Numbered from the stretch's first letter, positions 13,367-37,258 are shown. The stretch: 39,350 bases of DNA from Candidatus Omnitrophota bacterium (GCA_016206565.1 JACQRG010000061.1:1-39350), one strand, 5' to 3'. A program made the numbers and translations. Notes: a model not told the origin generated them from the letters alone.

Positions 13367-13369
13367 TCC

Positions 13370-13912
13370 TTGAGCCTCGCCAACCAGATCTCCATCTTCC
13401 GGCTGCTGCTTGCCCCGGCCATCGTCGCCTGCCTGCTCTACTACAGCCCGCAGCGCGATGACCTGCGCTTTCTCGCCCTGGGCCTCTTCGTCGTGGGGAT
13501 GGCCTCGGACGCGCTCGACGGGTTCTTCGCCCGCGTGAAGCGCCAGCAGACCGAGCTGGGCACGCTGCTGGACCCGATCGCGGATAAGGCGCTCATCCTG
13601 GGCACCTTGATTAGCTGCTCCACCATCCAGGGGCTGCCGGCCTGGATGCGCGTGCCGGCGTGGTTCAACCTCCTCGTGATCAGCCGGGACGTGCTCCTGG
13701 TGGCCGGCAGCGTCGTCCTCTTCGCCATGCAGGGCCGCTGGCACGTGCGCCCCAGCCCGCTGGGCAAAGGCACGACCGTCGCCCAGATGCTCGTCATCCC
13801 GACGGTCCTGCTGGGGCTGCCGGTGAAGGAGCCGCTCATCCTGCTCGCAGCGGCGCTGACCGCGCTCTCCGCCGCGTCTTACATCCGGATGGGTGTCAAG
13901 GCCCTCGGCTGA
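13370..13912 (+). CDS. pgsA: CDP-alcohol phosphatidyltransferase (likely phosphatidylglycerophosphate synthase)
   Basis: TTG start. The CDP-alcohol motif is DALDGFFARVKRQQTELGTLLDPIADK, and the protein is multi-TM. Confidence 0.85.
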   Translation: MSLANQISIFRLLLAPAIVACLLYYSPQRDDLRFLALGLFVVGMASDALDGFFARVKRQQTELGTLLDPIADKALILGTLISCSTIQGLPAWMRVPAWFNLLVISRDVLLVAGSVVLFAMQGRWHVRPSPLGKGTTVAQMLVIPTVLLGLPVKEPLILLAAALTALSAASYIRMGVKALG

Positions 13913-13930
13913 TCGCCGCGCGGCATCGCC

Positions 13931-15241: not shown

Positions 15242-15870
15242 TGAGCGAGCTGGCCTTGGCCCTGCTGGCGGCCTACCTGATCGGCTCGGTCCCCACCGGG
15301 TTCCTGCTGGTGCGCTGGCGATCCGGCGTTGACGTGCGCACGGTGGGCAGCGGCAATATCGGCGCAACAAACGTCGCGCGCGCCGCCGGCAAAGGCATCG
15401 GGCTGCTCGTCCTGCTCTTGGACCTCGGCAAGGGGCTGCTGGCGGTGCGGCTGGTCGCGCCCTGGCTTGTCCCGCAGCTCGCCCTCACCGGCCAGCTGGC
15501 CTGCGGGCTCTGGGCCGTGCTGGGGCATAGCGTTCCGGTGTGGCTGAGGTTCCGAGGCGGGAAGGGCGTGGCTACCACGATCGGCGTGCTGCTCGGTGCC
15601 ATGCCGCTGGTCGCGGCCCTCTGTCTTGGCGTGTGGCTGGCCTGCTTCGTCATCTGGCGCTATGTCTCCGTCGCGTCCCTGGCCGCCGCCCTCACGCTAC
15701 CGCTGGCCCAGCTGGCACTCAGCCAGCAGCCCATCCAGGTCCTGCTGGGGTCCTGCCTGACCCTGCTGATCTGGGCGCGTCACCGCGCCAATCTCGAGCG
15801 GCTCCTCCAGGGCACCGAGCACCGCATGCGTTTCGGCGCGCCGTCGAGCAGCCGCCACAGCCCGTCTTGA
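15241..15870 (+). CDS. plsY: Glycerol-3-phosphate acyltransferase PlsY
   Basis: TGATG overlap with der. AYLIGSVPTG, GSGNIGATNV and GGKGVAT motifs, and the protein is multi-TM. Confidence 0.92.
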   Translation: MSELALALLAAYLIGSVPTGFLLVRWRSGVDVRTVGSGNIGATNVARAAGKGIGLLVLLLDLGKGLLAVRLVAPWLVPQLALTGQLACGLWAVLGHSVPVWLRFRGGKGVATTIGVLLGAMPLVAALCLGVWLACFVIWRYVSVASLAAALTLPLAQLALSQQPIQVLLGSCLTLLIWARHRANLERLLQGTEHRMRFGAPSSSRHSPS

Positions 15871-18624: not shown

Positions 18625-19190
18625 CGGGGAATATCCAGGACGGTGTCGGTGCCGTCCGCCTGCCGCAACCGCACGGTCGTCCGGCCGACCTCTGCGACCG
18701 TCGCCTGCCCGATGCGATCGCCTGCGCGCACAATCTCGTTGTTGATCACGGCGTACGCCTCGCTGCTGCCGCCGTCAATGATGCCGCTTAGCGCGAAGCT
18801 GGGGGCGGCGGCAAGCACCGCAGCGGCCGGTGCCTGGATGACCGGGGACGGCTGCGGCCGTGGGGCCGGCTCCGGCGCTGGCGCAGCGGCACGCGCGACC
18901 TGCGGGGCTGCCGGCACCACCGCCTGACGGGGTGCGGGCGGGCGCTGGGACCATTTGATCCCCCCAAAGAACAAGATGGCGGTCAAGCCCAGCACCGCGA
19001 CCGCCAGCATGCCCAGCGGCATCGGCGCCGAGGCCTCTCCGGGGCGGACAGCGCCAGGGGCGGCGGTCGGCCAGGAGTGCGCGATGGCGGGCGGCGGCTC
19101 CGGCGCCTTGGGCGGGGCGTGCACGGTCGGCGGGGGCGGGGCGACACTGGGGTCCTGGACTCGACGCAACGCCTCTTCGATGATGCTCAT
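18621..19190 (-). CDS. GspB/ExeB-like bitopic membrane protein (Pro-rich, C-terminal T2SSB-like beta domain)
   Basis: One TM segment (LGMLAVAVLGLTAILFFGGI), Pro/Ala-rich linkers and the C-terminus LSGIIDGGSSEAYAVINNEIVRAGDRIGQATVAEVGRTTVRL. It lies immediately downstream of an ExeA-like ATPase. Confidence 0.6.
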   Translation of the reverse strand: MSIIEEALRRVQDPSVAPPPPTVHAPPKAPEPPPAIAHSWPTAAPGAVRPGEASAPMPLGMLAVAVLGLTAILFFGGIKWSQRPPAPRQAVVPAAPQVARAAAPAPEPAPRPQPSPVIQAPAAAVLAAAPSFALSGIIDGGSSEAYAVINNEIVRAGDRIGQATVAEVGRTTVRLRQADGTDTVLDIPR

Positions 19191-19208
19191 CGCGATGCCT
19201 CCCTCGTC

Positions 19209-20027
19209 CTACGCGCCAACGACTTGTCCCTGCAGTTCCTGAAAGCTGCGGCGGACCAGCTCCCGGTCCACCCGCGTGGTCCGGTAGACGTAGCACGCCA
19301 GCAGCGAGCGGTCGCAAATCTGGTTGATGAGCCGCGGCGTGCCCTTGGAGCACCGGTAGACCTCCTGCGCCGCCTCGGCCGTCCACTGCACCGTGCCATC
19401 CGAGCCGGCTATGCGCAAGCGGTGATGGATGTAGGTGGTGACTTCCTCCGCATCGAGCGGCCCGATGTGATACCGCACCCCGATGCGCTGGCGCAGCTGC
19501 TCCAGCGCCGGGCGGGCCAGTTTCTCCCGCAGCTGCGGCTGGCCGACCAGGATGATCTGGATGAGCTTCTCCTTGTCGGTTTCCAGGTTCGAGAGCATGC
19601 GGATCTGCTCCAGCACGCGCAGGCTCAGGTTCTGCGCTTCGTCAATGATCAGGACGATGTTGTGGCCGATGGCCGCCTCATCGAGCAGGAACTGGTTGAG
19701 CTGCTCAAAGAGGTTCAGCCGGTTGGCGGTCATGGGGTTGAGGCCGAAATCCTTCACGACCGCGTAGAGCAGCTGCAGCTCCGAGAGGCCGGATTGCAGC
19801 ACGAGGGCGGTCTTCGTCGAGCCGTCGAGCTGGCGCAGCAGCGCCTTGCAGATAGTGGTCTTGCCGGTGCCGATGTCCCCGGTGATTTCGATGAACCCCT
19901 TGCGCTCGCGGATGCCGTAGACCATGTGCGCGAGCGCCTCGCGGTGCTTCTTGGAGAGGTAGAGAAAGGCAGGGTCGGACGTAATCGCGAAGGGTTTTTC
20001 ACGCAGGCCAAGATACTCGAGATACAT
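19209..20027 (-). CDS. ExeA/GspA/MshM-type AAA (AAA_22) ATPase
   Basis: The N-terminus is YLEYLGLREKPFAITSDPAFLYLSKKHREAL. Walker A is TGDIGTGKTT and Walker B is VLIIDEAQNL. At 272 aa it is the short form, with no peptidoglycan-binding domain. Confidence 0.85.
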   Translation of the reverse strand: MYLEYLGLREKPFAITSDPAFLYLSKKHREALAHMVYGIRERKGFIEITGDIGTGKTTICKALLRQLDGSTKTALVLQSGLSELQLLYAVVKDFGLNPMTANRLNLFEQLNQFLLDEAAIGHNIVLIIDEAQNLSLRVLEQIRMLSNLETDKEKLIQIILVGQPQLREKLARPALEQLRQRIGVRYHIGPLDAEEVTTYIHHRLRIAGSDGTVQWTAEAAQEVYRCSKGTPRLINQICDRSLLACYVYRTTRVDRELVRRSFQELQGQVVGA

Positions 20028-20039
20028 GGCGCTGCAGAT

Positions 20040-20068
20040 ATTCTACGCCCGGTGCAGACCCGGCGCAA
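20040..20068 (-). promoter_or_regulatory. Sigma70-type promoter for the ExeA-like operon: TTGCGC - 17 nt - TAGAAT (minus strand)
   Basis: Read on the minus strand: TTGCGC cgggtctgcaccgggcg TAGAAT, then 12 nt to the ATG at 20027. Confidence 0.5.
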
Positions 20069-20079
20069 GCGAGAAACCA

Positions 20080-20108
20080 TTGACAGGCCGCGGCGACGGT
20101 GCTAGCCT
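20080..20108 (+). promoter_or_regulatory. Sigma70-type promoter: TTGACA - 17 nt - (TGc)TAGCCT, ending 6 nt before the ATG (leaderless)
   Basis: Consensus -35 with an extended -10. The ATG at 20115 sits where transcription would start, and no SD is present. Confidence 0.55.
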
Positions 20109-20114: not shown

Positions 20115-20459
20115 ATGACCCCGGAGCGGCGCCTCCATCCTCGCGCTCGCGCTTACCGCCCGGTGCGGCTGCATCCCCGCGGCAGCCCGGCGGTGATTGA
20201 AACGCTGACCAAGGACCTCAGCGTCTGCGGCCTGCGCTGCCTGTGCCCCAAGCCGGTGCCGGTCGGCTTGCCGGTCAACGTCGAGCTGGTGCTTGGCCAG
20301 GGGCAGGAGCCGTTGTTCCTCGAGGGCAAGGCGGTGTGGTTCAGGACCCTGCCGGATAGCGAGCAATACGACCTCGGCGTCTCATTTCTTGACCTGAGCG
20401 AGCAAAAACGACGACGTCTGTCTGTGTATTTTGACTCTGTCGCAGCTGTTCCTGCCTAG
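20115..20459 (+). CDS. Single-domain PilZ protein (putative c-di-GMP receptor)
   Basis: RRLHPR (RxxxR) near the N-terminus and DLSVCG (D/NxSxxG) about 20 residues later. The size (114 aa) and beta-barrel pattern are typical of a stand-alone PilZ. Confidence 0.8.
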   Translation: MTPERRLHPRARAYRPVRLHPRGSPAVIETLTKDLSVCGLRCLCPKPVPVGLPVNVELVLGQGQEPLFLEGKAVWFRTLPDSEQYDLGVSFLDLSEQKRRRLSVYFDSVAAVPA

Positions 20460-20512
20460 TTTTCTGCAGAAGTAATATTATAACTCCTTGTAGTACAATA
20501 AGTTATATGATA

Positions 20513-20542
20513 TTGACTTTCCATGCTCCAATATGGTAGACT
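20513..20542 (+). promoter_or_regulatory. Sigma70-type promoter: TTGACT - 18 nt - (TGg)TAGACT in a ~30% GC island
   Basis: Near-consensus -35 and an extended -10. It lies ~80 nt upstream of a strong SD and ATG. Confidence 0.6.
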
Positions 20543-20549
20543 AGTGTCT
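20538..20549. promoter_or_regulatory. Inverted repeat AGAC-N4-GTCT overlapping the -10/transcription start (candidate operator 1)
   Basis: AGACtagtGTCT overlaps the TAGACT -10 hexamer. The same arms recur 55 bp downstream. Confidence 0.35.
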
Positions 20550-20589
20550 GATGGATGGCGGATAGGAGCGAAGGCCAACCCATCCACTC

Positions 20590-20607
20590 TCTAGACATAT
20601 GTCTAGA
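20590..20607. promoter_or_regulatory. 18-bp perfect palindrome TCTAGACATATGTCTAGA (contains AGAC-N4-GTCT), directly abutting the RBS (candidate operator 2 or UTR hairpin)
   Basis: Perfect dyad symmetry verified by eye. The SD GGAGG begins 4 nt after it. The palindrome itself is certain; its function is inferred. Confidence 0.4.
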
Positions 20608-20624
20608 AGAGGAGGTGAGAACGC

Positions 20625-20786
20625 ATGAAACTCGACCAGCATGTCATCACGGGTGTCTTTTTCGGGCTCGTGTTCGGAATGCATTACCACGGGCTGGACG
20701 CGTATAAGGACGTTCTCACGATCGTCGCCGTCGTCCTCGCGCTCGGTGTCGTGGGCGGGCTCAAGCTGGGCAAGCTGATCAAGTAA
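20625..20786 (+). CDS. Small (53 aa) two-TM membrane protein, below the length cutoff of the supplied ORF track
   Basis: SD GGAGG lies 9 nt before the ATG. Translation: MKLDQHVITGVFFGLVFGMHYHGLDAYKDVLTIVAVVLALGVVGGLKLGKLIK. Third-position GC is high like the bona fide genes although the flanks are AT-rich. The ORF is bracketed by a promoter and an intrinsic terminator. Confidence 0.6.
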   Translation: MKLDQHVITGVFFGLVFGMHYHGLDAYKDVLTIVAVVLALGVVGGLKLGKLIK

Positions 20787-20813
20787 GCCAGCAAGCCCAG
20801 GCACGGTTACGAC

Positions 20814-20854
20814 TCGGGGGCTGCTCTCCACTGGAGGGCAGCCCCCGATTTTTT
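20814..20854 (+). terminator. Rho-independent terminator
   Basis: GC-rich stem TCGGGGGCTGCTCTCC / GGAGGGCAGCCCCCGA followed by TTTTTT. It starts 28 nt after the small-ORF stop. Confidence 0.75.
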
Positions 20855-20856
20855 GC

Positions 20857-20885
20857 TTGCGTCCGTCGGTGAACGCCGCTATACT
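20857..20885 (+). promoter_or_regulatory. Sigma70-type promoter: TTGCGT - 17 nt - TATACT
   Basis: It lies immediately after the terminator T-tract and would direct transcription toward the 3' end of the convergent mazG gene. Confidence 0.4.
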
Positions 20886-20933
20886 GGTCCCGTCGTCGGC
20901 GCTGTTCGTTCACACCCCGAAAGGTGCGTTCCC

Positions 20934-21044
20934 GTGGTCCCGTTGTTCGACTTCGATCCTCGCCTCACCAACCTGGTGCTCGGCCTGGTAATCGGGCTCT
21001 GCCTGTCCCTGGTCTGGCACTGGGCGGCGTGGGCCCTGCACTAG
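20934..21044 (+). CDS. Possible 36-aa single-TM peptide (weak call)
   Basis: GTG at 20934 preceded by AAAGG. Translation: VVPLFDFDPRLTNLVLGLVIGLCLSLVWHWAAWALH. It lies downstream of the promoter above. The stop shares the CTAG tetranucleotide with the mazG stop. This could equally be a non-coding antisense transcript. Confidence 0.25.
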   Translation: MVPLFDFDPRLTNLVLGLVIGLCLSLVWHWAAWALH

Positions 21045-21849: not shown

Positions 21850-22200
21850 ATGACCCCAAGTGAATGCCTCTTCTGCCGCATTGCCCAGCGGCAGCTTCCC
21901 GCCCGGATCGCGGGCGAGGAGGACGGCCTGCTGGCCTTCGAAGACGTCAACCCCCAGGCGCCGGTGCACCTGCTCATCATCCCGACTGAGCACCTTCCGA
22001 CGCTGGCCGACGCCACCCCGGCGCACACGCCGCTGCTGGGCCGGACCGTGCAGTTCGCCAACCGGCTTGCGCGCGAGCGCGGGCTCGGAACGGACGGCTA
22101 CCGGCTGGTGGTCAACTGCGGCGCAAAGGCCGGACAGAGCGTGTTCCACCTGCATTGGCATCTCCTGGGCGGGCGGTCCTTCCAATGGCCCCCGGGATGA
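21850..22200 (+). CDS. HIT-family (histidine triad, HinT-like) nucleotide hydrolase
   Basis: CLFCRI, NPQAPVHLLIIP and the histidine triad HLHWHLLGG. Confidence 0.92.
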   Translation: MTPSECLFCRIAQRQLPARIAGEEDGLLAFEDVNPQAPVHLLIIPTEHLPTLADATPAHTPLLGRTVQFANRLARERGLGTDGYRLVVNCGAKAGQSVFHLHWHLLGGRSFQWPPG

Positions 22201-22568
22201 TGGCCGATCGGCGCGAACGGCGTGCCAGCTCTAGGGCGTCGGAGCGCCTCTCGCTGGCCTTAGCCGGCGACGGCCGGGAGTGGACCGCTCAAACCAAGAA
22301 CATCAGCGCGTCCGGGGTGTATTGCGCCCTGGCGCAGTTCATCCCGCCGATGACGAAGCTGGCCCTGCGCTTCGCCCTGCCGCAGAACGGCCGGGACGTG
22401 CCGGTGCGCTGCACCGGGGTCGTCGTGCGCGTGGAGCCGGTCATCGCCGGCCCCCAGCAGGGTGCCTACCACATCGCGATCTTCTTCACCGACATCTCCG
22501 AGCGCGACCGCTCGGTGATCGGCCGGTTCGTCGCCCAGCGCCTCGCCGCAACCCCCTCGACCGATTGA
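22197..22568 (+). CDS. Single-domain PilZ protein (putative c-di-GMP receptor), second copy in the window
   Basis: ATGA overlap with the HIT gene. RRERRASSR (RxxxR region) and NISASG (D/NxSxxG). 123 aa. Confidence 0.75.
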   Translation: MMADRRERRASSRASERLSLALAGDGREWTAQTKNISASGVYCALAQFIPPMTKLALRFALPQNGRDVPVRCTGVVVRVEPVIAGPQQGAYHIAIFFTDISERDRSVIGRFVAQRLAATPSTD

Positions 22569-22574: not shown

Positions 22575-23426
22575 GTGTGGTGGCTGGCCGCGCTTCTGGG
22601 AACTGCCTGTGTGGGCTGGGGCGTGTTGGCTACGCGGCGCATCCTCTACCCCAAGCACCGGCCGGTCCTCGCGCCACAGCCGTTACCCTCCTATACGACC
22701 CATCTGTTGCGCGCCGCGGATGGCGCAGCCTTCGACGTCTGGCGCCTGCGTCCCGCCGAGGCGCGCGCCCACCTGGTGATGTGCCATGGCTACTACGCGA
22801 ACCGCTACCAGGTGCTGGGTGCGGCGCAGGGACTGCGTGAGCGCGGCTACGATGCGCTGCTGCTGGAGCTGCGGGGGCACGGCTCGCGCCCGGGTCCCTG
22901 CACCCTGGGGCTGCGCGAGGCGCAGGACGTGAGAACGATTCTGACATGGCTGCGCCAGGAGGAGGCCTCACGCCTGCCCGTCGCCCTGCTGGGCTTCTCG
23001 ATGGGGGCGGCGGTGGCCTGCCAGGCCGCGGCGCGCTATCCGCAGGTCAAAGCGGTCGTCACGGACTCGGTCTACGCCTCGTTCTTCGACGTGGTGCGCA
23101 TCAACATCCGCCGGCTCTACCGGCTGCCCGCGGTGCCGTTTGCTTGGCTGACCTGGGCCGCGCTGCAGGCGCGCTTCGCCGGCCGGCTGGGGGCGGCCGA
23201 CCCGGCGGCCTTGGCCCCGGCGCAGCATGCGTCGCTGCTGGCCATCCAGGGCGGGGCGGACCGGCATGTCACGCTGCCGGCGAGCGAACGGTTCTTTGCG
23301 CGATGGGCCGGCCCGAAGGAGCGATGGGTGGAGCCCCGCGTGGCGCACGTCGGCATGTATAAGCGGGACCCGCGCGAGTACTGCGACCGCGTGGCGGCGT
23401 TCCTGGACCGGGCGGTGGGGGGATGA
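22575..23426 (+). CDS. Membrane-anchored alpha/beta-fold hydrolase
   Basis: GTG start 6 nt after the PilZ stop. N-terminal TM segment, HG oxyanion region (VMCHGY), nucleophile elbow GFSMG, and later GGADRH / H near the C-terminus. It is a paralog of the ORF at 38362. Confidence 0.8.
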   Translation: MWWLAALLGTACVGWGVLATRRILYPKHRPVLAPQPLPSYTTHLLRAADGAAFDVWRLRPAEARAHLVMCHGYYANRYQVLGAAQGLRERGYDALLLELRGHGSRPGPCTLGLREAQDVRTILTWLRQEEASRLPVALLGFSMGAAVACQAAARYPQVKAVVTDSVYASFFDVVRINIRRLYRLPAVPFAWLTWAALQARFAGRLGAADPAALAPAQHASLLAIQGGADRHVTLPASERFFARWAGPKERWVEPRVAHVGMYKRDPREYCDRVAAFLDRAVGG

Positions 23427-25636
23427 CCATCTTCGACGTGCCGCATCCGAGAAACAAACCGGTGCTGCTCAAGCGCCTGCCCGTGTTCAGCGAGTGCAAT
23501 GAGAAGCAGCTGCTGTTCATCGCCGAGCGCACGCGCATCGTCGAGTACAAGAAGGGCGAGGCCGTGTACCGCGAGGGAGAGGCGGCCGCTTCGCTCTACA
23601 TCGTCGTCTCCGGACGGCTGCGCGTCTTCACGCAGGTCGGCGGGCGGGAAGCCACCGTCGCCATCCTCCACAACGGGGACTCCTTCGGCGAGGTTTCCCT
23701 GCTGACCGGCGAGAGCCACTCCGCGACCGTGCAGGCGCTCAACGACGCGCTCGTCCTGCAGCTGCTCAAGAGCGACTTCGAGGACGTCATCAACCGCATC
23801 CCCTCCCTCGTCCTCTCCCTGAGCCGCTCGCTCTCCAAACGGCTGCGCACGACGATGCACACGGGGGGTGCGACCGAAGCGACGATCGTGTCCATCTACA
23901 GCGCGGTCAAGGGGGTGGGCCGCACCCTCTTCGCCGCGGCCCTGGCCGCGATGCTCAAGCGCCATGCCGGCCTGGGCGTGCTGGTGGTGGACATGAACCC
24001 CGAAGGCGAAGAGCAGGCGCTGCTCCAGGGCACGCTTGCGCCGCCCTCGGTCATGCTCTCGGCGGCCTCCGGCGTGATGACCGAGGAGCAGCTGACGCAG
24101 GCGCTCTCCGAGCACCCGCTGGGGTTCAGCGTGCTGTCCATCGGCTCGGCCTTGGTCCAGCAGCAAGGCGACCAGGGAGTGGCGCCGCTCTTAAGCGAGC
24201 TCACCAAGCGCTTCGGCTATATCATCATGGACCTGCCGGTGGAGACCGCGCCGCACGTGCTCAAGGCCTTGACGCAGTCCGACGTGATCTACCTCATGAC
24301 CGACCAGCACCGCGACACGCTGGTCCGCACGAAGGCGCTCGTGCAGCGCGTGCAGGAGGCGATCGGCTTTATGGAGCAGCGCATCAAGGTTGTGGTCAAC
24401 CGGATGACCCGGCTCGGGATCGCCGTGAGCCTGGAGGAGATCAAGGAGGAGCTGGGCGCCTCCGTGGCGGTCTCGCTGCCGCAGCTCGAGGCCGAGCAGG
24501 CACGCGTCACGCTCAACGACCTGGCACAGCACCTCGGCAGCGAGACCTCGCTCTATGGGCGGGCGGTGCGCCGGGCGGCGCGCGACCTCTCGGGCACCGT
24601 GCTGGGACTAGCCTTAGGATCCGGCGCGGCGCTGGGGCTGGCGCACATCGGGGTCCTGAAGGTGCTGGAGCGGGAGCAGATTCCCATTGACATGATCGCG
24701 GGGACCAGCATCGGCGCGATGATCGGCGGGCTCTGGGCGTCGGGGCGCTCGGCCGCCCAGCTCGAGGAGATGGCGCTGCGGTTCAAGGACCCCTGGGATA
24801 TCCGGCGGCTCTTCATCTTGGACTTGGGGATTCCCATGGTCGCCCTGATCATCGGCACCCTCGCCGGCCTGGCGATCGGCGCCCTGGCCGGGTTCTGGAC
24901 CGGCCTGCTGTTCGGATTCATGGTCTGCGTCTCCACCGGCGTGGTGCTGGGGCCCCTGGCCGGCGGGCCGATCCAGGGGGCCGTGCTGGCGCGACGGCTG
25001 GAGGAGGATTTCAAGGGCAAGACGTTCGAGGATACCTGGCTGCCGCTCAAGATCGTCGCGGCCAACCCGATGGCGCGGGAAGAGGTGGTGTTCGACTCCG
25101 GCCGGATCGCGGAGGCGGTGCGGGCGTCGGTGTCCATCCCGGGGATCTTTAAGCCGGTGCGGCGCATGGGCAAGATCTGCCTCGATGGCGGGGTGGTGGA
25201 CCCGGTGCCGGTCGGGGTGCTCAAGCGCGCCGGCGCGAACCGGGTCATCGCGGTCAACGTGTTTCCGACCATGGCCGAGTTCCAGGCCTACCAGCAGGAG
25301 AGTGCGAGGCGCCGCCAGGAGCGGGAAGCGCGCATCACCTCGCGCAGCCTGCCGGTGCGCCTGCTCATCCGCCTGCGCCAGGAGCTGGTCAGCTCGGTGA
25401 CCCCGCTGATCTTCGACGTGATCATGCGCTCGATGCAGTTCATGGAGTACCAGATCGCCGAGGTCGCCTGCCATGACGCAGACCTGACGCTGCGCCCATC
25501 GCTGGCCGGCGCGCACTGGCTGGAGTTCTTCCATCCCGAACCGTTCATCCAGCGCGGGGAAGAGGTCGCGCTGCAGCACCTGCCGCAGCTCAAGCGCCTC
25601 GCCGGCATGACGGCGCCCGACGTTGACAAGGGATGA
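23423..25636 (+). CDS. Three-module protein: cyclic-nucleotide-binding domain + ParA/MinD/CpaE-like domain with degenerate Walker A + patatin-like phospholipase with an inserted hydrophobic hairpin
   Basis: The cNMP module is GEAVYREGE...LYIVVSGRLRV...FGEVSLLTGESHSATV. The ParA-like module is IVSIYSAVKGVGRTLFAAALAAML...VLVVDMNPEGEE...YIIMDLP...VIYLMTDQ...VVVNRM. The patatin module has LALGSGAALGLAHIGVLKVLE, the nucleophile GTSIG and the catalytic Asp DGGVVDPVPV. A ~50-aa Gly/Ala/Leu-rich two-TM insert (IPMVALIIGTLAGLAIGALAGFWTGLLFGFMVCVSTGVVLGPLAGG) follows the nucleophile elbow. Confidence 0.85.
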   Translation: MTIFDVPHPRNKPVLLKRLPVFSECNEKQLLFIAERTRIVEYKKGEAVYREGEAAASLYIVVSGRLRVFTQVGGREATVAILHNGDSFGEVSLLTGESHSATVQALNDALVLQLLKSDFEDVINRIPSLVLSLSRSLSKRLRTTMHTGGATEATIVSIYSAVKGVGRTLFAAALAAMLKRHAGLGVLVVDMNPEGEEQALLQGTLAPPSVMLSAASGVMTEEQLTQALSEHPLGFSVLSIGSALVQQQGDQGVAPLLSELTKRFGYIIMDLPVETAPHVLKALTQSDVIYLMTDQHRDTLVRTKALVQRVQEAIGFMEQRIKVVVNRMTRLGIAVSLEEIKEELGASVAVSLPQLEAEQARVTLNDLAQHLGSETSLYGRAVRRAARDLSGTVLGLALGSGAALGLAHIGVLKVLEREQIPIDMIAGTSIGAMIGGLWASGRSAAQLEEMALRFKDPWDIRRLFILDLGIPMVALIIGTLAGLAIGALAGFWTGLLFGFMVCVSTGVVLGPLAGGPIQGAVLARRLEEDFKGKTFEDTWLPLKIVAANPMAREEVVFDSGRIAEAVRASVSIPGIFKPVRRMGKICLDGGVVDPVPVGVLKRAGANRVIAVNVFPTMAEFQAYQQESARRRQEREARITSRSLPVRLLIRLRQELVSSVTPLIFDVIMRSMQFMEYQIAEVACHDADLTLRPSLAGAHWLEFFHPEPFIQRGEEVALQHLPQLKRLAGMTAPDVDKG

Positions 25637-25675: not shown

Positions 25676-26869
25676 ATGCCCACTGAGATCGTGATCGTGG
25701 ACGGCGTGCGGACCCCGCAGGGAGTCTTCGGCGGGGCGCTCAAGCAGCTCACCGCCCAGCAGCTCGGCGAGGTGGCGGTGCGGGAGCTGCTCAAGCGCAC
25801 CAACCTCAAGCCCGCCCAGGTGGAGGAGACCATCTTAGGCTGCGTGGGCCAGCAGTCCGATGCGCCGAACATCGCCCGCGTCGTCGCACTGCGCGCCGGC
25901 ATCCCCAAAGAGGTGCCGGCGTTCACCGTCCAGCGCAACTGCGCCTCGGGACTGCAGGCCATCGTCAGCGCCTGCCAGAACCTGCTCTGCGGCGACCGCG
26001 ACATCCAGGTGGCGGGTGGCACGGAGAGCATGAGCACCGCGCCCTACGTCAGCCGGGATTTGCGCTGGGGCAAGCGGCTGCGGCATTCCGAGATGGTGGA
26101 TTCGGTCTGGGAGGGGCTCACCGACCCGGTCTGCGGCCAGATCATGGGCCAGACCGCGGAGAACCTGATCAAAGAGTTCGGCATCAGCCGCGCGGACCAG
26201 GACAAATTCGCGCTGCTCTCCCACCAGCGGGCGTTCAGGGCCACGCGCGAGAACCGGTTCAAGGACGAGCTCGTCCCCGTCATGGTGCCCAAGCGCGCGA
26301 TGGGCAAAGACCTGCCGCCGGAGCCCTTCACGCAGGATGAGGGCATCAACCCGGGCCTCAACGAGCAGCTGCTGGGCCAGTACCCGGCGGTGTTCACCGA
26401 GAACGGATCGGTGACGCCGGGCAACGCTTGCTTCAATGCGGACGGCGCGTCGGCGCTGCTGCTCATGTCCGCCGAGAAGGCCAAGGCGCTGGGCTACAAG
26501 CCGCTGGCCAGGGTCCGCGCGTGGGCCTTCGCCGGGCTGGAGCCGGAGCGCATGGGGCTGGGGCCGACCCTCTCGGTGCCGATGGCGCTGAAGAAAGCCG
26601 GCGCGGCGCTCAAGGATATCCAGCTCATCGAGCTTAACGAGGCGTTCGCCGCCACCTACCTGGCCTGCGAGAAGGTTCTGGGCTACAGCCGCGATATCTG
26701 CAACGTCAACGGCGGCGCCATCGCGCTGGGGCATCCGGTCGGGGCGACGGGGGCTCGCCTCACGGTCACCCTCCTGCACGAGATGAAGCGGCGCAGCCTC
26801 TCGCTGGGCCTGGCGACCGCGTGCGTCGGGGGCGGGCAGGGGGCCACCATCGTCTTCGAGCGCGCGTGA
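25676..26869 (+). CDS. Acetyl-CoA C-acyltransferase (thiolase)
   Basis: VDGVRTP, the active-site Cys region VQRNCASGLQAI, NEAFA, GGAIALGHPVGATGAR and CVGGGQG. Confidence 0.95.
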   Translation: MPTEIVIVDGVRTPQGVFGGALKQLTAQQLGEVAVRELLKRTNLKPAQVEETILGCVGQQSDAPNIARVVALRAGIPKEVPAFTVQRNCASGLQAIVSACQNLLCGDRDIQVAGGTESMSTAPYVSRDLRWGKRLRHSEMVDSVWEGLTDPVCGQIMGQTAENLIKEFGISRADQDKFALLSHQRAFRATRENRFKDELVPVMVPKRAMGKDLPPEPFTQDEGINPGLNEQLLGQYPAVFTENGSVTPGNACFNADGASALLLMSAEKAKALGYKPLARVRAWAFAGLEPERMGLGPTLSVPMALKKAGAALKDIQLIELNEAFAATYLACEKVLGYSRDICNVNGGAIALGHPVGATGARLTVTLLHEMKRRSLSLGLATACVGGGQGATIVFERA

Positions 26870-28092
26870 TGTACATCTACAAGACGGCGGTGGTGGGTGC
26901 CGGCGCGATGGGAGCGGACATCGCCCAGGTGATCACCTTCAGCGGCGTGCCGGTGCTGCTCAAGGACGTGGACCAGCATGCGGTGGACCACGGTCTTGAG
27001 GCGATCCGCACGGTCTATCGGCGCCGGGTGGACCGGGGCAAGATGACCCAGGACGAGCTGGAGAAGAAGATGGCCCTGGTCACCGGCGTGACGTCGTATG
27101 ACCAGTTCAAGGACGTGGACCTGGTCATCGAGGCGGTGCCGGAGCGCCTGGACTTAAAGCAGCGCATCTTCCGGGAGCTCGACGGGCTGCTGCCCGAGTC
27201 TTCCATCATCGCATCGAACACCTCCTCGCTCTCCATCTCGGCGCTGGGCGGGGCCACGAAGCGGCCGTCAAAAGTCATCGGGATGCATTTCTTCTATCCC
27301 GCGCACGTCATGAAATTGGTGGAAGTCATCCCCGGCCTGGACACCTCGGAGGAAACCGCCGGCGACATCACCGCCTTCGCCGAGAGCCTGCGCAAGCTGC
27401 CGGTGCGCGTCAACGAGTGCGCCGGCTTCCTGGTCAACCGCATCCTGATGCCGTACCTTAACGAGGCGGCCTGGTGCGTCCAGGAGGGGGCCGCGTCGGC
27501 GCGCCAGATCGACGAGGCCATGGTGGCCTTTGGATTCCCGATGGGCCCGTTCACCCTGGTGGACAACCTGGGCTTCGACGTCTGCCGCGAGGTGGTCAAG
27601 GTGCTGCTGGACGCCTACGGCTCGCGCATGGAGCCGGCGACGCTCTGGGAGCGGCTCTACGAGCTGAAGCGCTACGGGGTGAAGTCCGGCGCCGGGTTCT
27701 ACCTCTACGGCGACCGGGCCGGGCAGCCGGACGCCGACCTGGACCGGGTCCTCGCGCAGCTGAAGGCCCAGCATAAGGGCCCGGCCGAATTCAGCGTGAA
27801 CCGGCTGGTGCTGCCCATGATTAATGAAACCATTCGCTGCCTGGAGGAGCATGTCTGCACCGCGGCCGACGCCGACCTCTCGGTGGTGGCCGGCCTGGGG
27901 TTTCCGCAGGCCAAGGGCGGGCTGCTGCACTATGCGGACGAGGTGGGCTTGGACGTGGTGCTGGCCGAGCTGGAGCGGCTCACCAAGGCGTACGGCGAGC
28001 GGTTCTGGCCCTCGCCGCTGTTGAAGCGCAAGGTCGCCGCCGGGCATCTGGGCAAGAAGGCCCGCCGCGGCTTCTTTGAGTACACCGAGTGA
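26869..28092 (+). CDS. 3-hydroxyacyl-CoA dehydrogenase (NAD-binding + duplicated C-terminal domain)
   Basis: TGATG overlap. Rossmann motif AVVGAGAMGADIA, EAVPE.L.LK, SNTSSL, HFF.PA..M.LVE and GF.VNR. Confidence 0.92.
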   Translation: MYIYKTAVVGAGAMGADIAQVITFSGVPVLLKDVDQHAVDHGLEAIRTVYRRRVDRGKMTQDELEKKMALVTGVTSYDQFKDVDLVIEAVPERLDLKQRIFRELDGLLPESSIIASNTSSLSISALGGATKRPSKVIGMHFFYPAHVMKLVEVIPGLDTSEETAGDITAFAESLRKLPVRVNECAGFLVNRILMPYLNEAAWCVQEGAASARQIDEAMVAFGFPMGPFTLVDNLGFDVCREVVKVLLDAYGSRMEPATLWERLYELKRYGVKSGAGFYLYGDRAGQPDADLDRVLAQLKAQHKGPAEFSVNRLVLPMINETIRCLEEHVCTAADADLSVVAGLGFPQAKGGLLHYADEVGLDVVLAELERLTKAYGERFWPSPLLKRKVAAGHLGKKARRGFFEYTE

Positions 28093-28099
28093 GGGCCTG

Positions 28100-28891
28100 A
28101 TGCCGCTGCCATCCGGGGAGAACGTCAAGGCCAGCCTGGAGGAGCGCGTGGCGCTCATCACGATTGACCACCGGCCGGTCAACGCGCTCAACCGCCAGAC
28201 GCTGGAAGAGCTGGGCAAGGTCGCGGATGCGCTGGCCGCGGAGCCGGCAGCGAAGGCCGTGGTCTTAACCGGCGCCGGGTCGCTGGCGTTCGTCGCCGGC
28301 GCGGACATCAAGGAGGTTGCGCAGTTGGCCTCGCCGGAGCAGGCCAAGGCCATGGCCGCGCTCGGCCAGGCCGTGTTCCTGAAGCTCCAGCGGCTCAAGC
28401 TGCCGGTGATCGCCGCCATCAACGGGGTGTGCCTGGGCGGCGGGCTGGAGCTGGCGATGGCCTGCCACCTGCGCGTCTCCGGCGACCGGGCCAGGTTCGG
28501 CCAGCCCGAGGTCAACCTCGGCATCATCCCGGGCTGGGGCGGCACGCAGCGGCTGCCGCGCCTGATCGGCAAGGCCAAAGCCTTCGAGTGGATCCTCACC
28601 GGCGACGTGTACACGGCCCAGGAGGCGTTGCGCCTGGGGCTGGTCAACCTGGTCGTGCCCCAGGACCAGGTCCTCAAGGCGGCGAAGGATTTGGCGAAGA
28701 AGATCGCCGGCAAGGGCGCGGTGGCCGTCCAGCAGGCGCTGCGGGCCATCGAAGACGGGGCATCGCTGCCCTTAGAGCAGGGGCTGGCCAAGGAGGCCGA
28801 GGCGTTCGGCGACGTGGCGAAGAGCGAAGACAGCAAGGAGGGCGTGCGCGCCTTCCTGGAGAAGCGCCAGCCGCAGTTCAAGGACCGATGA
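28100..28891 (+). CDS. Enoyl-CoA hydratase (crotonase family)
   Basis: NALN, VVLTGAG..FVAGADI, INGVCLGGGLELAMACH and GQPEVNLGIIPGWGGTQRL. Confidence 0.92.
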   Translation: MPLPSGENVKASLEERVALITIDHRPVNALNRQTLEELGKVADALAAEPAAKAVVLTGAGSLAFVAGADIKEVAQLASPEQAKAMAALGQAVFLKLQRLKLPVIAAINGVCLGGGLELAMACHLRVSGDRARFGQPEVNLGIIPGWGGTQRLPRLIGKAKAFEWILTGDVYTAQEALRLGLVNLVVPQDQVLKAAKDLAKKIAGKGAVAVQQALRAIEDGASLPLEQGLAKEAEAFGDVAKSEDSKEGVRAFLEKRQPQFKDR

Positions 28892-30735
28892 GCGCCGTGC
28901 TAGGCAAGGGCTCGCCCGAGGCGCTTGAGGTCACCGAGGCCGCGCGCCAAGCGGAGTGGCAGTATCCAAGTTTCGTCGCCGGACTGTTCATGGGGCGGGT
29001 CCGCCAGGACCTGGTGTTCCCGTGCCCGGAGCAGCCTGAAGACGACCGGCGCGCCGGCGACGCGTTCCTCGCCGAGCTCGACGCCTTCCTGAAAGCCCAG
29101 GTGGACCCGGACGAGATTGACCGCACCGGCGAGCTGCCCGCCTCGGTCATCCAGGGCCTGGTCCGGCTGGGCTGCTTCGGCATGAAGATCCCCAAGGAGT
29201 ACGGCGGCCTGGGCCTCTCGCAGGCGAACTACGCCCGGGTCCTGACGCTGCTGGGAAGCCACTGCGCGTCCACCGCGGTGTGGCTCAGCGCCCACCAGAG
29301 CATCGGCGCCCCGCAGCCGCTGATGCTCTTCGGCACCGAGGAGCAGAAGCGCGCCTACCTGCCGCGCCTGGCACAGGGCACCATCTCCGCCTTCGCGCTG
29401 ACCGAGCCCGGCGTGGGCTCGGACCCGGCCAATATGCTCACGACCGCCACCCCCATCGAGGGCGGGGAACTCTACCTGCTCAACGGCGAGAAGCTCTGGT
29501 GCACGAACGGCCCGGTCGCCGACGTCGTGGTGGTCATGGCCCGCACGCCGTCGGTCATGGCAGGCGGCAAGGAGCGCAAGCAGATCACCGCCTTCATCGT
29601 CGAGAAGGCGATGCCGGGCGTCGAGGCGGTCCATCGGTGCGAGTTCATGGGCTTGAAAGGCATCCAGAACGGCGTGCTGCGCTTCACCAACGTGCGGGTG
29701 CCGAAGGGCAACATCATCTGGGGCCCGGGCCTGGGGCTGAAGCTCGCACTCGTGACGCTCAATGCAGGCCGCATCGCGATCCCCGCGGCGAGCGTTGGGG
29801 GTGCCAAGCGCTGCCTGCAGATCGTGCGGGGCTGGGCCAAGGAGCGCAAGCAGTGGGGCGGGCCGATCGGCAAGCACGAGGCGGTGGCGGCGAAGATCGG
29901 CGAGATGGCCGCCGCGACCTTCGCGATGGACGCCATGGTGACTATCACCTCGGCCCTGGTGGACCGCAAGAGCATTGACATCCGCCTGGAGGCGGCCATT
30001 GCCAAGCTGTACTGCTCGGAGGCTGCCTGGCGCATCGTGGACGACACGCTGCAGATCCGCGGCGGGCGCGGCTACGAGACCGCCGCGTCGCTGCGCGGGC
30101 GGGGGGAGCCGGGCATCGGCGTCGAGCGCATGCTGCGCGATTCCCGCATCAACCTCATCATCGAGGGCACGAGCCAGATCATGCGCCTCTTCATCGCCCG
30201 GGAGGCGCTGGATGCGCACATGCGCCTGGTCGGGGAGCTGCTGAGCCCGCACGGGGCGCCGGCCAAAAAGCTCGCCGCCGCGCTGCGCGCCATCATCCAC
30301 TACGCCGTGTGGTATCCCCGCCAGTGGCTGTTCTGGAGCGGCTGGCCGCGGTATGCGCATCTGCATCCGCGCCTGGCCGGCCACATGCGGTTCGTGGAGC
30401 GGACCAGCCACCGGCTGGCGCGCGCCCTCTTCCACGGGGCGGTCCGACATCAAACGCGCCTGGCCTATCGCCAGCAGCTGCTCGGGCGGCTGGTGGACGT
30501 CGGCGCGGAGCTCTTCGCCATGGTCGCGGCCTGCAGCAGGGCCCAAGCGCTCATCCGGCTGCAGCCGTCGGAGCAGAGCCCCGTCGAGCTGGCGGATGTG
30601 TTCTGCCGGCAGGCGCGCCGCCGCGTGGACAGCGCGCTGCGCTTAGCCGGCGACAATGAGGATCGGGCCGTCTATCAGATCGCGCAAGACGTCCTCGGCG
30701 GCCGCTATGAGTGGTTGGAGGAAGGCATTGTCTGA
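28888..30735 (+). CDS. Very-long-chain-type (VLCAD/ACAD9-like) acyl-CoA dehydrogenase with C-terminal extension
   Basis: ATGA overlap. SFVAGLFMGRVRQDLVFPCPE, GLGLSQANYARV, FALTEPGVGSDPA, LNGEKLWCTNG, IAKLYCSEAAWRIVDDTLQIRGGRGY and IIEGTSQIMRLFIA align by eye along the whole VLCAD architecture. The product is ~615 aa. Confidence 0.9.
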   Translation: MSAVLGKGSPEALEVTEAARQAEWQYPSFVAGLFMGRVRQDLVFPCPEQPEDDRRAGDAFLAELDAFLKAQVDPDEIDRTGELPASVIQGLVRLGCFGMKIPKEYGGLGLSQANYARVLTLLGSHCASTAVWLSAHQSIGAPQPLMLFGTEEQKRAYLPRLAQGTISAFALTEPGVGSDPANMLTTATPIEGGELYLLNGEKLWCTNGPVADVVVVMARTPSVMAGGKERKQITAFIVEKAMPGVEAVHRCEFMGLKGIQNGVLRFTNVRVPKGNIIWGPGLGLKLALVTLNAGRIAIPAASVGGAKRCLQIVRGWAKERKQWGGPIGKHEAVAAKIGEMAAATFAMDAMVTITSALVDRKSIDIRLEAAIAKLYCSEAAWRIVDDTLQIRGGRGYETAASLRGRGEPGIGVERMLRDSRINLIIEGTSQIMRLFIAREALDAHMRLVGELLSPHGAPAKKLAAALRAIIHYAVWYPRQWLFWSGWPRYAHLHPRLAGHMRFVERTSHRLARALFHGAVRHQTRLAYRQQLLGRLVDVGAELFAMVAACSRAQALIRLQPSEQSPVELADVFCRQARRRVDSALRLAGDNEDRAVYQIAQDVLGGRYEWLEEGIV

Positions 30736-32524
30736 CCGTCCGCCGGCCGACACGCTGCCGGCGCTCTTCGTCCAGCGCGCCGCCGCGTCAGGCCCCAAAC
30801 CCCTGTTTCTGGTCAAACGCGACGGCGCCTACCGGCCGATGTCCTGGCGGCAGGCTGCCGATGACGTCTGCGCGTTGGCGGCGTTCCTGCTGGAGCAGGG
30901 GGTCGCGGCCGGCGACCGGGCCGCGATTCTCTCGGAGAATCGTCCGGAATGGGGCATCGGCGACCTGGCCATCCAGTCCGTCGGCGCTTGGACGGTCCCG
31001 CTGTATCCCAGCCTGACGGCGCAGGACATCCACGGCATCTGCCGCGACTGCGAGCCGGTGGCGTGCGTCGCATCCACGGCAGAGCAGGCGCGCAAGATCG
31101 CCGAGATCCGCGCCGGCGTGCCGTCGCTGCGCGTCGTCATCGCTATGGACGGGGGGGCGGGCACGGTCTCCTGGGCCGACGCGCTGGCCAGGGGGCGGGC
31201 TGCGCTGCCGGCGCGCCGGGAGGAGCTGGACGCGCGCCGAAACGCCCTGCGCCCCGGCGACACGGCGACGCTGATCTACACCTCCGGCACCACGGGCGAG
31301 CCTAAAGGCGTCATGCTCTCCCACCGGAATTTCCTCTCCAATGTCCGGGCGAGCCTTGACGCCATCCCCATCTGCGGCGACGACCTGCACCTCTCGTTCC
31401 TGCCGCTGTGCCACGTGTTCGAGCGGATGGCCGGCTGGTACTTGATGCTCGACGTCGCAGCGACGGTGGCCTACGCCGAGTCCATGGACACCATCCCGGA
31501 CAACATGCGGGAGGTGCGCCCGACCGTGATGCTGGGCGTGCCCCGGTTCTTCGAGAAGCTCTACGCGCGCATCCAGGAGGCGCTGCGGCAGATGCCGCCT
31601 GCCAAGCAGCGGCTGGCGCGGTGGGCGATCCGGGTCGGGCAGCGGGCGGCGCAGGCGCGGGAGCAGCGCCGGCCCGTTCCGCCCGGGCTGGCCCTGCAGG
31701 TGTGGTTGGCCGACCGCCTCGTCCTGGAGAAGTTCCGCCGGCGCCTCGGCGGGCGGCTGCGCTTCTTCGTCTCCGGCTCAGCGCCCCTCTCGGCGGACAT
31801 CGGCCGGTTCTTCAGCGGCCTTGGTATCACCATCATCGAGGGCTACGGGCTGACCGAGACCTCGCCGGTGATCGCGGTGAACCGGCTCTCCCGTCCGAAG
31901 TTCGGCACGGTCGGTCCGCTCATTTCCGGGGTGGAGGTGCGCATCGCCGACGACGGAGAGATCCTGACGCGCGGCCCCCACGTGATGCAGGGCTACTACC
32001 GCAAGCCGGAGGAGACCGCGGCGGTGATCACGGACGGCTGGCTGCACACCGGCGACGTCGGGCATCTGGACGGCGACGGCCACCTGGTCATCACCGACCG
32101 CAAGAAGGACCTCATCAAGACCGCCGGCGGCAAATTCGTTGCGCCCCAGAAGCTCGAGAACCTGTTCGTCACCGACCCGTACGTCAGCCAGGCGTTCGTG
32201 TACGGCGACCGGCAGCGGTACTGCGTGGCACTCGTGGTGCCGAACATGGCCCGCCTCCGGGAATACGCCGCCTCGCAGGGCATCGCCGCCGCCGGCCCGG
32301 CCCAGCTGGTGCAGGATGCGCGCATCCGCGAGTTCTACTGGCAACGGGTCCAAGAGCGGCAAGGCGGCCTGGCGTCGTTCGAGCAGGTCAAGGCCATCGC
32401 TCTGCTGGACCAGGAGTTCACCCAGGCCGCCGGAGAATTGACCCCCACGCTGAAGGCCAAGCGCGGCGTGATCGCGCAGCGCTACGCCGAGGCGCTGCGC
32501 CGGCTCTACGAGCAGCCGGCGTGA
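30707..32524 (+). CDS. Long-chain-fatty-acid--CoA ligase (AMP-dependent synthetase)
   Basis: AMP-binding motif IYTSGTTGEPKGVMLSHRN, then EGYGLTETS, GWLHTGDVG and DRKKDLIKTAGGKFVAPQ. The start is either ATG 30707 (29-nt overlap) or TTG 30728, which is preceded by GGAGGAAGG. Confidence 0.9.
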   Translation: MSGWRKALSDRPPADTLPALFVQRAAASGPKPLFLVKRDGAYRPMSWRQAADDVCALAAFLLEQGVAAGDRAAILSENRPEWGIGDLAIQSVGAWTVPLYPSLTAQDIHGICRDCEPVACVASTAEQARKIAEIRAGVPSLRVVIAMDGGAGTVSWADALARGRAALPARREELDARRNALRPGDTATLIYTSGTTGEPKGVMLSHRNFLSNVRASLDAIPICGDDLHLSFLPLCHVFERMAGWYLMLDVAATVAYAESMDTIPDNMREVRPTVMLGVPRFFEKLYARIQEALRQMPPAKQRLARWAIRVGQRAAQAREQRRPVPPGLALQVWLADRLVLEKFRRRLGGRLRFFVSGSAPLSADIGRFFSGLGITIIEGYGLTETSPVIAVNRLSRPKFGTVGPLISGVEVRIADDGEILTRGPHVMQGYYRKPEETAAVITDGWLHTGDVGHLDGDGHLVITDRKKDLIKTAGGKFVAPQKLENLFVTDPYVSQAFVYGDRQRYCVALVVPNMARLREYAASQGIAAAGPAQLVQDARIREFYWQRVQERQGGLASFEQVKAIALLDQEFTQAAGELTPTLKAKRGVIAQRYAEALRRLYEQPA

Positions 32525-36314: not shown

Positions 36315-36316
36315 CC

Positions 36317-37201: not shown

Positions 37202-37223
37202 GCATGGCGCGGCAGCCCGCGGC

Positions 37224-37252
37224 TTGTTGAGCGGCGGCTTTTCCGCTACACT
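37224..37252 (+). promoter_or_regulatory. Sigma70-type promoter: TTGTTG - 17 nt - TACACT, ending 6 nt before the ATG (leaderless)
   Basis: The -10 is at 37247-37252 and the ATG at 37259. No SD is present in the 6-nt gap. Confidence 0.55.
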
Positions 37253-37258
37253 AGCCCT

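Follow-up and report, generated by a model that had tools for sequence, protein, structure and literature searches.

The 39,350-nucleotide stretch of a Candidatus Omnitrophota bacterium analysed here (GCA_016206565.1 JACQRG010000061.1:1-39350; hereafter the window) carries, at positions 23423-25636 of the + strand, a gene for a 737-residue protein that joins a cyclic nucleotide-binding (CNB) domain, a MinD-like domain that is probably a pseudo-ATPase, and a patatin domain with a hydrophobic helical hairpin at its lid position. This tripartite protein belongs to an enzyme family that is previously undescribed but widespread, mainly in Omnitrophota. We propose, with a probability of roughly 0.6, that it acts as a ligand-gated, membrane-embedded lipid acyl-hydrolase that would supply fatty acids to the β-oxidation enzymes encoded alongside it. 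The gene is laid out as follows.

23423-25636, + strand: whole gene, 737 residues, CNB domain, MinD-like probable pseudo-ATPase and patatin domain with hairpin lid (open reading frame (ORF); N-terminal Met conserved in the family)
23453-23857, + strand: CNB domain of the CAP/PKA type, residues 11-145, with its C-terminal helix at 127-144 (Pfam, PDB profile matches, Foldseek)
23684-23725, + strand: phosphate-binding cassette FGEVSLLTGESHSA, residues 88-101, with His99 in place of the canonical Arg (alignments to PKG and PKA)
23873-24592, + strand: domain of the MinD/ParA/CpaE fold, residues 151-390, probable pseudo-ATPase (family profile, Foldseek)
23900-23926, + strand: degenerate deviant Walker A motif SAVKGVGRT, residues 160-168 (ungapped profile hidden Markov model (HMM) alignment to MinD SGKGGTGKT)
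24218-24238, + strand: Walker B-like motif YIIMDLP, residues 266-272, with D270 (aligns with the LLDAPAG segment of MinD)
24599-24817, + strand: N-terminal part of the patatin domain, residues 393-465 (Pfam PF01734, PlpD alignment)
24617-24637, + strand: oxyanion loop GSGAALG, residues 399-405 (motif)
24701-24715, + strand: nucleophile elbow GTSIG, residues 427-431, with Ser429 (motif)
24818-24973, + strand: hydrophobic glycine-zipper helical hairpin in lid position, residues 466-517, helices 469-489 and 491-512 (hydropathy, AlphaFold2, glycine register)
24974-25609, + strand: C-terminal part of the patatin domain, residues 518-729 (PlpD and RssA alignments)
25184-25192, + strand: DGG motif, residues 588-590, with the catalytic Asp588 (motif)

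The product is identical to an NCBI entry annotated as 'patatin-like phospholipase family protein [Candidatus Omnitrophica bacterium]' (P0001). An earlier reading of the DNA by itself (the sequence-only reading) had proposed the order of CNB, ParA-like and patatin domains, and this order is borne out by Pfam, by profile matches to the PDB and by Foldseek comparisons of an AlphaFold2 model with the PDB. The model was based on a 73-sequence alignment and has a predicted local distance difference test (pLDDT) score of 79.2 and a predicted template modelling (pTM) score of 0.71. The places that had been quoted for the SAVKGVGRT, GSGAALG, GTSIG and DGG motifs and for the hydrophobic segment are all correct and are those listed above. 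The patatin domain as a whole spans residues 393-729 and is split by the 52-residue hairpin. The same reading had considered that the gene might be an assembly chimera of two genes. At least 120 full-length homologs, with 56-69% identity and 97-100% query coverage, were found in NCBI, JGI, ENA and Logan assemblies, and no composition break was found within the gene. Because the same architecture recurs in at least 120 homologs from these four independent sources, the gene is not a chimera.

A profile was searched exhaustively against 1.8 billion representatives, giving 7539 matches, and the best 150 of these were rescanned with domain HMMs. Among these best 150, at least 55 clusters (50% identity) have the layout of CNB, MinD-like and patatin domains, with lengths of 640-713 residues. 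Among the matches listed, full-length ones were mostly from Omnitrophota; a few came from metagenome-assembled genomes bearing the label Planctomycetia or Verrucomicrobia, and Desulfobacterales contributed more distant ones. A scan of GTDB genomes covered relatives of at most 38% identity, without the close hairpin subfamily, and gives a lower bound on the taxonomic spread. By these comparisons, the tripartite architecture is common in Omnitrophota and no one-off. No model in the curated family libraries (Pfam, NCBIfam) covers the full architecture, and database labels are generic. The literature searched yielded no description of the architecture, nor of Omnitrophota with patatin or β-oxidation, and the lipocone paper refers to patatin and to cNMP domains solely in other contexts, in keeping with the initial impression that the arrangement was undescribed. 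Family position counts below come from an alignment of 49 diverged tripartite relatives (A3), and those for the hairpin subfamily from the 120 close homologs.

The patatin domain matches PF01734 over residues 396-600 with an E-value of 8e-31 (108.2 bits, cutoff 27.7). Its best matches are PlpD (5fqu, E-value 2e-31, template modelling score (TM-score) 0.83) and RssA (E-value 3e-33). The RssA equivalog model (NF007623) is not reached, with 115 bits against a cutoff of 272, and it describes a single-domain protein of ~300 residues, as opposed to a three-domain protein of 737. Since none of the 49 tripartite relatives (29-61% identity) departs from Ser429, Asp588 or G401, the enzyme is expected to be a competent hydrolase. 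The fifth position of the oxyanion loop, usually Arg or Lys, had been singled out for its Leu. This Leu is present and conserved in the hairpin subfamily, yet the position varies across the 49 relatives, which have Leu (16), Phe (13), Arg (12), Met (3), His (2), Tyr (2) or Ser (1).

The hairpin contains no charged residue among its 52 residues in the window protein, and its Kyte-Doolittle hydropathy exceeds 1.6 throughout. Both helices are modelled by AlphaFold2 with a block-mean pLDDT of 74-92 (residues 471-510). Glycines recur in an i+4 register (G478, G482, G486, G490, G494, G498, then C502, G506, G510 and G514), each Gly being present in at least 104 of 120 homologs. Charged substitutions across these homologs are confined to residue 490, at the predicted turn, where 15 of 120 have Glu or Asp. 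A hydropathy scan revealed no hydrophobic window outside residues 393-517, and the protein has no N-terminal transmembrane helix. The alignment to PlpD breaks at this place: residues 394-454 of the query align with chain residues 6-66, and residues 506-614 with 107-214. The skipped segment is the PlpD lid (residues 89-126 of the full-length protein), which lies above the lipid-binding groove and is crystallographically unresolved (PMC11116518). In CapV, the corresponding region lines the acyl-chain pockets (PMC12480259). The two-helix, glycine-rich insert within the patatin domain that the sequence-only reading had reported is thus a conserved element at the PlpD lid position.

Other tripartite relatives have a linker of 11-30 residues at the lid position, with a motif like L-D-h-x-F-P-x-x-G-h, as against 52 residues in the hairpin subfamily. 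The syntenic orthologs L004-L006 are without the hairpin, and L004 has a lid of 14 residues. Insertion of the hairpin into the membrane is plausible from its composition. On the Hessa scale, helix 1 sums to about -0.4 to -0.6 kcal/mol and helix 2 to +0.3 to +2.2, values that fit either a topology of two transmembrane helices or a re-entrant hairpin.

A second tripartite lineage (L007:9992-12127, L014:5271-7415, L019:9968-12130 and P0161) carries a different insertion at the lid site, rich in Phe, Leu and Ile and 46-55 residues long. The tripartite gene is immediately preceded by one for acyl-CoA dehydrogenase in L007, L014 and L019. In this lineage the lid apparently became a membrane anchor independently, and the lid would evidently be a hot spot for gaining such anchors.

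The MinD/ParA-like middle domain scores just under the Pfam cutoffs, with 25.8 bits for AAA_31 (PF13614, residues 154-313, cutoff 27) and 22.7 bits for CbiA (PF01656, residues 164-354, cutoff 25.4). Its best NCBIfam match, Ssd/CpaE_hom (TIGR03815, residues 137-361, E-value 3.5e-12), reaches 46 against a cutoff of 154, and minD_arch (TIGR01969) 26.8 against 202. A profile of this domain built from 21 family members (A2) matches Archaeoglobus MinD (1hyq) with an E-value of 2e-7 over 227 of 247 positions, and it also matches Soj (2bek) and ParA (3ea0). Foldseek TM-scores are 0.80 for MinD (1hyq), 0.76 for ParA (3ea0) and 0.71 for FlhG. A ParA/CpaE fold had been placed at residues ~150-370; profile and structure comparison recovered it at residues 151-390. 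TadZ (3fkq) was rejected as the nearest structure, with an E-value of 0.32 compared to ~1e-7 for MinD and Soj.

Compared to SGKGGTGKT of MinD, the SAVKGVGRT motif has Val for the signature Lys, Lys for the first Gly and Arg for the P-loop Lys. The exchange of Lys for Arg noticed earlier therefore stands, while the supposed deletion of a glycine is ruled out by the HMM alignment to MinD, which runs without gaps and has substitutions instead. In the 120 close homologs, the motif reads S-A-[AVT]-[KR]-G-V-G-R-[TS], and the position of the P-loop Lys is occupied by Arg (103), Cys (10) or Gln (7), never by Lys. In this subfamily G166 is invariant, position 168 is Thr or Ser in all 120, and D190 and D270 hardly vary. 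Among the 49 diverged relatives, the signature position is Lys in two, the P-loop position is Lys in 19, Arg in 13 and another residue in 17, G166 is kept in 37 and the Walker B Asp in 38. In some of them the P-loop is wholly gone (NFYREDQAE, DYGIEFEKK, NTHREAEQA). The P-loop drifts freely across these relatives, in contrast to a Ser-Asp dyad that never varies, and the best reading of the middle domain is therefore a pseudo-ATPase, which gives comparative support to the 'pseudo-ParA' of the sequence-only reading. By the same counts, an ATPase function common to the whole family appears excluded, and residual nucleotide binding in the hairpin subfamily would be compatible with the pattern.

Among patatin-less proteins, the nearest relatives are ATPases of ~400 residues that join a receiver to a MinD/CpaE-type domain, along with a few of the CNB + MinD-like type; they retain KGG[VI]GK[ST] or the TadZ-like KGGxG[TASV]T. 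The middle domain would be a decaying descendant of such a 'sensor + MinD-like switch' module. Among individual proteins, P0218 is a patatin-less CNB + MinD-like protein with the motif KGGSGRT, P0187 has a receiver (REC), a CNB and a MinD-like domain, and P0257 has PAS-GGDEF-EAL followed by a MinD-like domain. These three suggest a wider class of signalling modules that pair a sensor with a MinD-like switch.

The N-terminal domain matches Pfam cNMP_binding (PF00027) over residues 40-125 with an E-value of 4.5e-24 (84.7 bits, cutoff 27.5). PDB profile matches include PKG, the PKA regulatory subunit (PKA-R) and CRP, and Foldseek TM-scores to the CNB domains of PKA and CRP are 0.7-0.8. What had been called a clear cNMP-binding domain is accordingly confirmed in its fold, but not in the canonical phosphate-binding Arg. 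His99 stands opposite the Arg of RSA/RTA in PKG and PKA, and G89 and E90 of the cassette are present. In the 49 tripartite relatives this position is His in 43 and Arg in one. With His predominating in place of the phosphate-binding Arg, cAMP or cGMP is doubtful as the ligand. For comparison, the title of PDB entry 6h4g describes a T. brucei PKA as cAMP-independent; the entry is its regulatory subunit, crystallised as a mutant with T318R.

The genomic neighbourhood places the gene in a conserved same-strand β-oxidation operon. Its ATG and the TGA of the upstream alpha/beta-hydrolase gene share the sequence ATGA, and a β-oxidation set follows downstream.

21850-22200, + strand: HIT gene (Pfam)
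22155-22568, + strand: PilZ gene, overlapping the 3' end of the HIT gene (Pfam)
22575-23426, + strand: alpha/beta hydrolase (Hydrolase_4/Abhydrolase_1) with a hydrophobic N-terminus (Pfam; counterpart in L003)
25676-26869, + strand: thiolase (Pfam)
26869-28092, + strand: 3-hydroxyacyl-CoA dehydrogenase, 3HCDH (Pfam)
28076-28891, + strand: enoyl-CoA hydratase, ECH (Pfam)
about 28888-30735, + strand: acyl-CoA dehydrogenase, ACAD (Pfam)
30656-32524, + strand: acyl-CoA synthetase, FadD (Pfam)
32599-34581, + strand: end of the conserved cluster, second Hydrolase_4 alpha/beta hydrolase in frame with a TPR/Peptidase_MA_2 protein (Pfam)

The order of the β-oxidation genes and of the two genes that follow them is the same in L001 and L003 (homologs P0113 and P0055), both contigs of more than 100 kb, and the HIT-PilZ pair also lies upstream in L001, L003, L004 and L006. 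SAM_HAT (SAM hydroxide adenosyltransferase-like) and GDPD (glycerophosphodiester phosphodiesterase) genes are directly upstream in L001:8506-9998 and L003:8470-10004; the 39-kb window has neither, and the alpha/beta hydrolase alone precedes the gene there. In species-representative genomes searched with tblastn probes, 13 of 25 loci of diverged tripartite proteins have adjacent β-oxidation genes on the same strand. Their order varies, with ACAD upstream in some and thiolase downstream in others. Of 54 patatin-only loci, 29 retain the entire 10 kb to either side of the match, and none of these 29 has same-strand β-oxidation genes. The two Hydrolase_4 genes of the cluster, of the lysophospholipase/monoglyceride-lipase type, add support for a lipid pathway.

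Taken together, these data point to a patatin-type phospholipase A/B or lysophospholipase that would free fatty acids from membrane glycerolipids and pass them to the β-oxidation enzymes of the adjoining genes. Catalysis would be carried out by the Ser429-Asp588 dyad with the glycine-rich oxyanion loop, as their invariant conservation suggests. The glycine-zipper helix-turn-helix would substitute for the flexible PlpD-type lid above the lipid groove, and may dip into or span the cytoplasmic membrane, so that the groove would open sideways to the bilayer and the enzyme would sit permanently at its substrate. Gating would start from the N-terminus, where the CNB-fold sensor, with a ligand that is perhaps neither cAMP nor cGMP, would signal through the MinD/CpaE-derived domain. 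The latter, without the signature Lys and the P-loop Lys, would serve as a dimerisation or allosteric hub and not as a hydrolysing ATPase. The protein may have originated when a 'sensor + MinD-like switch' module was fused to an RssA/PlpD-type patatin. Membrane insertion, lateral substrate access, the path from sensor through hub to lipase, dimerisation and the substrate class are what we infer from sequence, model and gene order.

Several observations weigh against this proposal. Synteny is guilt by association only, and GDPD is absent from the window. Helix 2 is only marginally hydrophobic, owing to its glycines, so the hairpin could instead be re-entrant, monotopic or a protein-protein interface. 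The Arg or Lys that is typical of phospholipase oxyanion loops is Leu here, similar to the loop GCGFLG of the neutral-lipid lipase ATGL. In addition, the P-loop [KR]GVGR[TS], D190 and D270 are well conserved within the hairpin subfamily, which fits retained nucleotide binding. This conservation would be explained if, in the same enzyme, the middle domain were still a switch that binds ATP or ADP without hydrolysis, with lipolysis gated by energy charge as well as by the CNB ligand. Such binding without hydrolysis has reportedly been seen in TadZ-type atypical ATPases, and the patatin-less relatives include the Lys-free P-loops KGGVGTT, KGGAGAT and KGGVGRT. The hairpin subfamily keeps a basic residue (R167 in 103 of 120) and the Mg-binding Thr, and the P-loop region is modelled as strand-loop-helix with a pLDDT of 82-92. 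NCBIfam even curates a 'KGGVGR-motif variant AAA ATPase' family, but membership is ruled out by a score of 17.5 bits against a cutoff of 90. Since the P-loop is not conserved in the wider tripartite family (signature Lys and G166 counts above), nucleotide binding is no family-wide requirement. We regard a retained nucleotide switch as possible, though on the unlikely side.

The substrate could also be a neutral lipid. The enzyme would then mobilise stored triacylglycerol or wax esters much like ATGL/PNPLA2, with the hairpin anchored monotopically in the phospholipid monolayer around a lipid inclusion instead of spanning a bilayer. The subfamily-wide oxyanion Leu, the tight linkage to β-oxidation and the marginal insertion energy of helix 2 fit this, and hydrophobic hairpins are the class I targeting motif of lipid droplets (PMC6995513). 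Phospholipid deacylation, on the other hand, yields products that fit the GDPD gene directly upstream in close relatives; 12 of the 49 family members have Arg at the oxyanion position, no gene for storage-lipid synthesis was seen in the window, and the Glu or Asp at turn 490 in 15 of 120 homologs fits water beyond a bilayer better than an oil core. We therefore consider a storage-lipid lipase improbable, and far more so an effector for defence or cell suicide like CBASS CapV or those of Pycsar. In the latter case, a nucleotide ligand would trigger membrane destruction, and the glycine zipper would aid pores or filaments. Glycine zippers do occur in pore formers, cyclic-nucleotide-activated patatin effectors exist (CapV, CapE filaments), and the CNB domain is similar to that of Pycsar effectors (PADLOC PycTIR, E-value 7e-15). 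Against this, the PADLOC and NCBIfam matches to defence phospholipases span ~55 N-terminal patatin residues (E-values 5e-4 to 2e-2), PADLOC similarity to Pycsar is confined to the CNB domain, and no cyclase gene is adjacent. Unlike a defence island, the housekeeping and β-oxidation neighbourhood persists in relatives at 30-60% identity. A defence-island effector was rejected on this neighbourhood and on the partial effector matches.

Regulated patatin lipases such as NTE, ATGL, CapV and ExoU play key parts in lipid turnover, disease and immunity, and how sensors gate them is poorly understood. The family described here would be a compact bacterial version, with a MinD/CpaE-derived pseudo-ATPase as coupler, a family-wide Arg-to-His change in the CNB domain and a lid turned into a membrane hairpin. 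The decay of the P-loop in a ParA-like domain can be mapped by comparison across the family. For Omnitrophota, an uncultured and largely enigmatic phylum in which the gene appears to occupy its syntenic slot beside β-oxidation genes almost universally, the gene and these neighbours offer a testable hypothesis of fatty-acid acquisition. More speculatively, and rather doubtfully, the family might form a new class of membrane-integral, ligand-gated lipases in which the lid has twice become an intramembrane hairpin, the zipper pairs protomers and lipids are drawn in laterally. The MinD/CpaE switch would have decayed, the CNB domain would have left cyclic nucleotides for another metabolite, and ultra-small Omnitrophota would burn their own or host membrane lipid through β-oxidation.

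The remaining genes of the window are housekeeping genes (RadC, Trp synthase, LepA, Der, Era, PGM, DHQ synthase and PolX), and scans for tRNA genes and Rfam families gave no match in it. At 32599-34581, the hydrolase reads into the TPR + Peptidase_MA_2 protein without a stop, and L001 and L003 have two overlapping genes in this place. The junction (WIVALGLLVACAGTGWA) resembles the signal peptide of the second protein. The read-through may reflect a true gene fusion, loss of the stop codon or an error in sequencing. Besides the PilZ gene next to HIT, a second small PilZ-domain gene lies at 20115-20459 (+ strand), recognised solely by its RxxxR...D-x-S-x-x-G motif; through PilZ, a link of cyclic di-GMP to the cluster is possible. 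The GC content dips to 0.59 at 20460-21040, compared to about 0.70, over short ORFs that include a 53-residue hydrophobic peptide (20625-20786). L003 has a small ORF of like size at the equivalent place. Two long ORFs on the - strand, of 757 residues (13097-15370) and 622 residues (36083-37951), have no Pfam match and are antisense to genes of a Der/EngA-type GTPase (13931-15241) and an Era-type GTPase (36104-37201), respectively. Both are most probably shadow ORFs of high-GC sequence and not genes. A further - strand ORF of 272 residues with a GTGKT P-loop (19209-20027) is antisense to a Pfam-less ORF of 342 residues (19077-20105), and a 273-residue AAA_16/AAA_22 gene is syntenic to it in L003.

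Each part of the protein can be set against known systems. With MinD/ParA/Soj and CpaE/TadZ/Ssd, the middle domain shares the fold over ~230 residues, including β1-P-loop-α1, the switch I Asp and the Walker B Asp, and it follows an N-terminal sensor of ~140 residues as in the REC + MinD-like and CNB + MinD-like relatives. In contrast to MinD/ParA ATPases, it lacks the signature Lys, has Arg for the P-loop Lys and scores below the Pfam and NCBIfam cutoffs. It is also fused to an enzyme instead of being a positioning or assembly ATPase, and its P-loop decays within the family. The patatin domain has its oxyanion, GxSxG and DGG motifs in the same order as P. aeruginosa PlpD and RssA/YchK, and PlpD has a dynamic amphipathic lid where the hairpin lies. 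PlpD is the periplasmic passenger of an Omp85 barrel and RssA has a single domain; neither contains a CNB or a MinD-like module. Instead of a 52-residue uncharged glycine-zipper hairpin they have amphipathic or short lids, and the oxyanion Arg of GGAARG/GSGAARG is Leu in the window protein.

CBASS CapV and CapE and the Pycsar effectors also couple a small-nucleotide sensor to a membrane-active effector. CapE is a structural match with a TM-score of 0.62, and the CNB domains of Pycsar are similar. CapV differs in binding its ligand on the patatin domain and in forming filaments. Pycsar effectors pair CNB with transmembrane or TIR domains rather than patatin, and the cassette Arg is His in the window protein. 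ATGL/PNPLA2 shares the Leu at the oxyanion position, a hydrophobic element for attachment to lipid surfaces and the delivery of fatty acids to β-oxidation. It differs in being eukaryotic, without CNB or MinD-like domains, and in having its hydrophobic stretch C-terminal to patatin.

The closest parallel in organisation is NTE/PNPLA6/Swiss-cheese/Nte1, which likewise has a CNB-fold region N-terminal to a patatin esterase and is membrane-anchored, as is predicted here. NTE deacylates phosphatidylcholine and lyso-phosphatidylcholine to glycerophosphocholine (PMC6995513; PMC12710771). This product is consumed by a glycerophosphodiesterase; in relatives of the window gene, a GDPD gene is the immediate upstream neighbour. 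NTE itself is not known to bind cAMP directly. NTE differs in having an N-terminal transmembrane helix, three CNB domains and a NEST-type patatin domain, where the window protein has a single CNB domain, no such helix and a patatin domain nearest to RssA and PlpD. No MinD-like module separates the sensor from the esterase in NTE. In the window protein, the predicted membrane element is instead the hairpin within the patatin domain. From its domain order and nearest relatives, the window protein thus appears to resemble NTE in its logic of CNB and patatin, and not to be a member of the NTE family.

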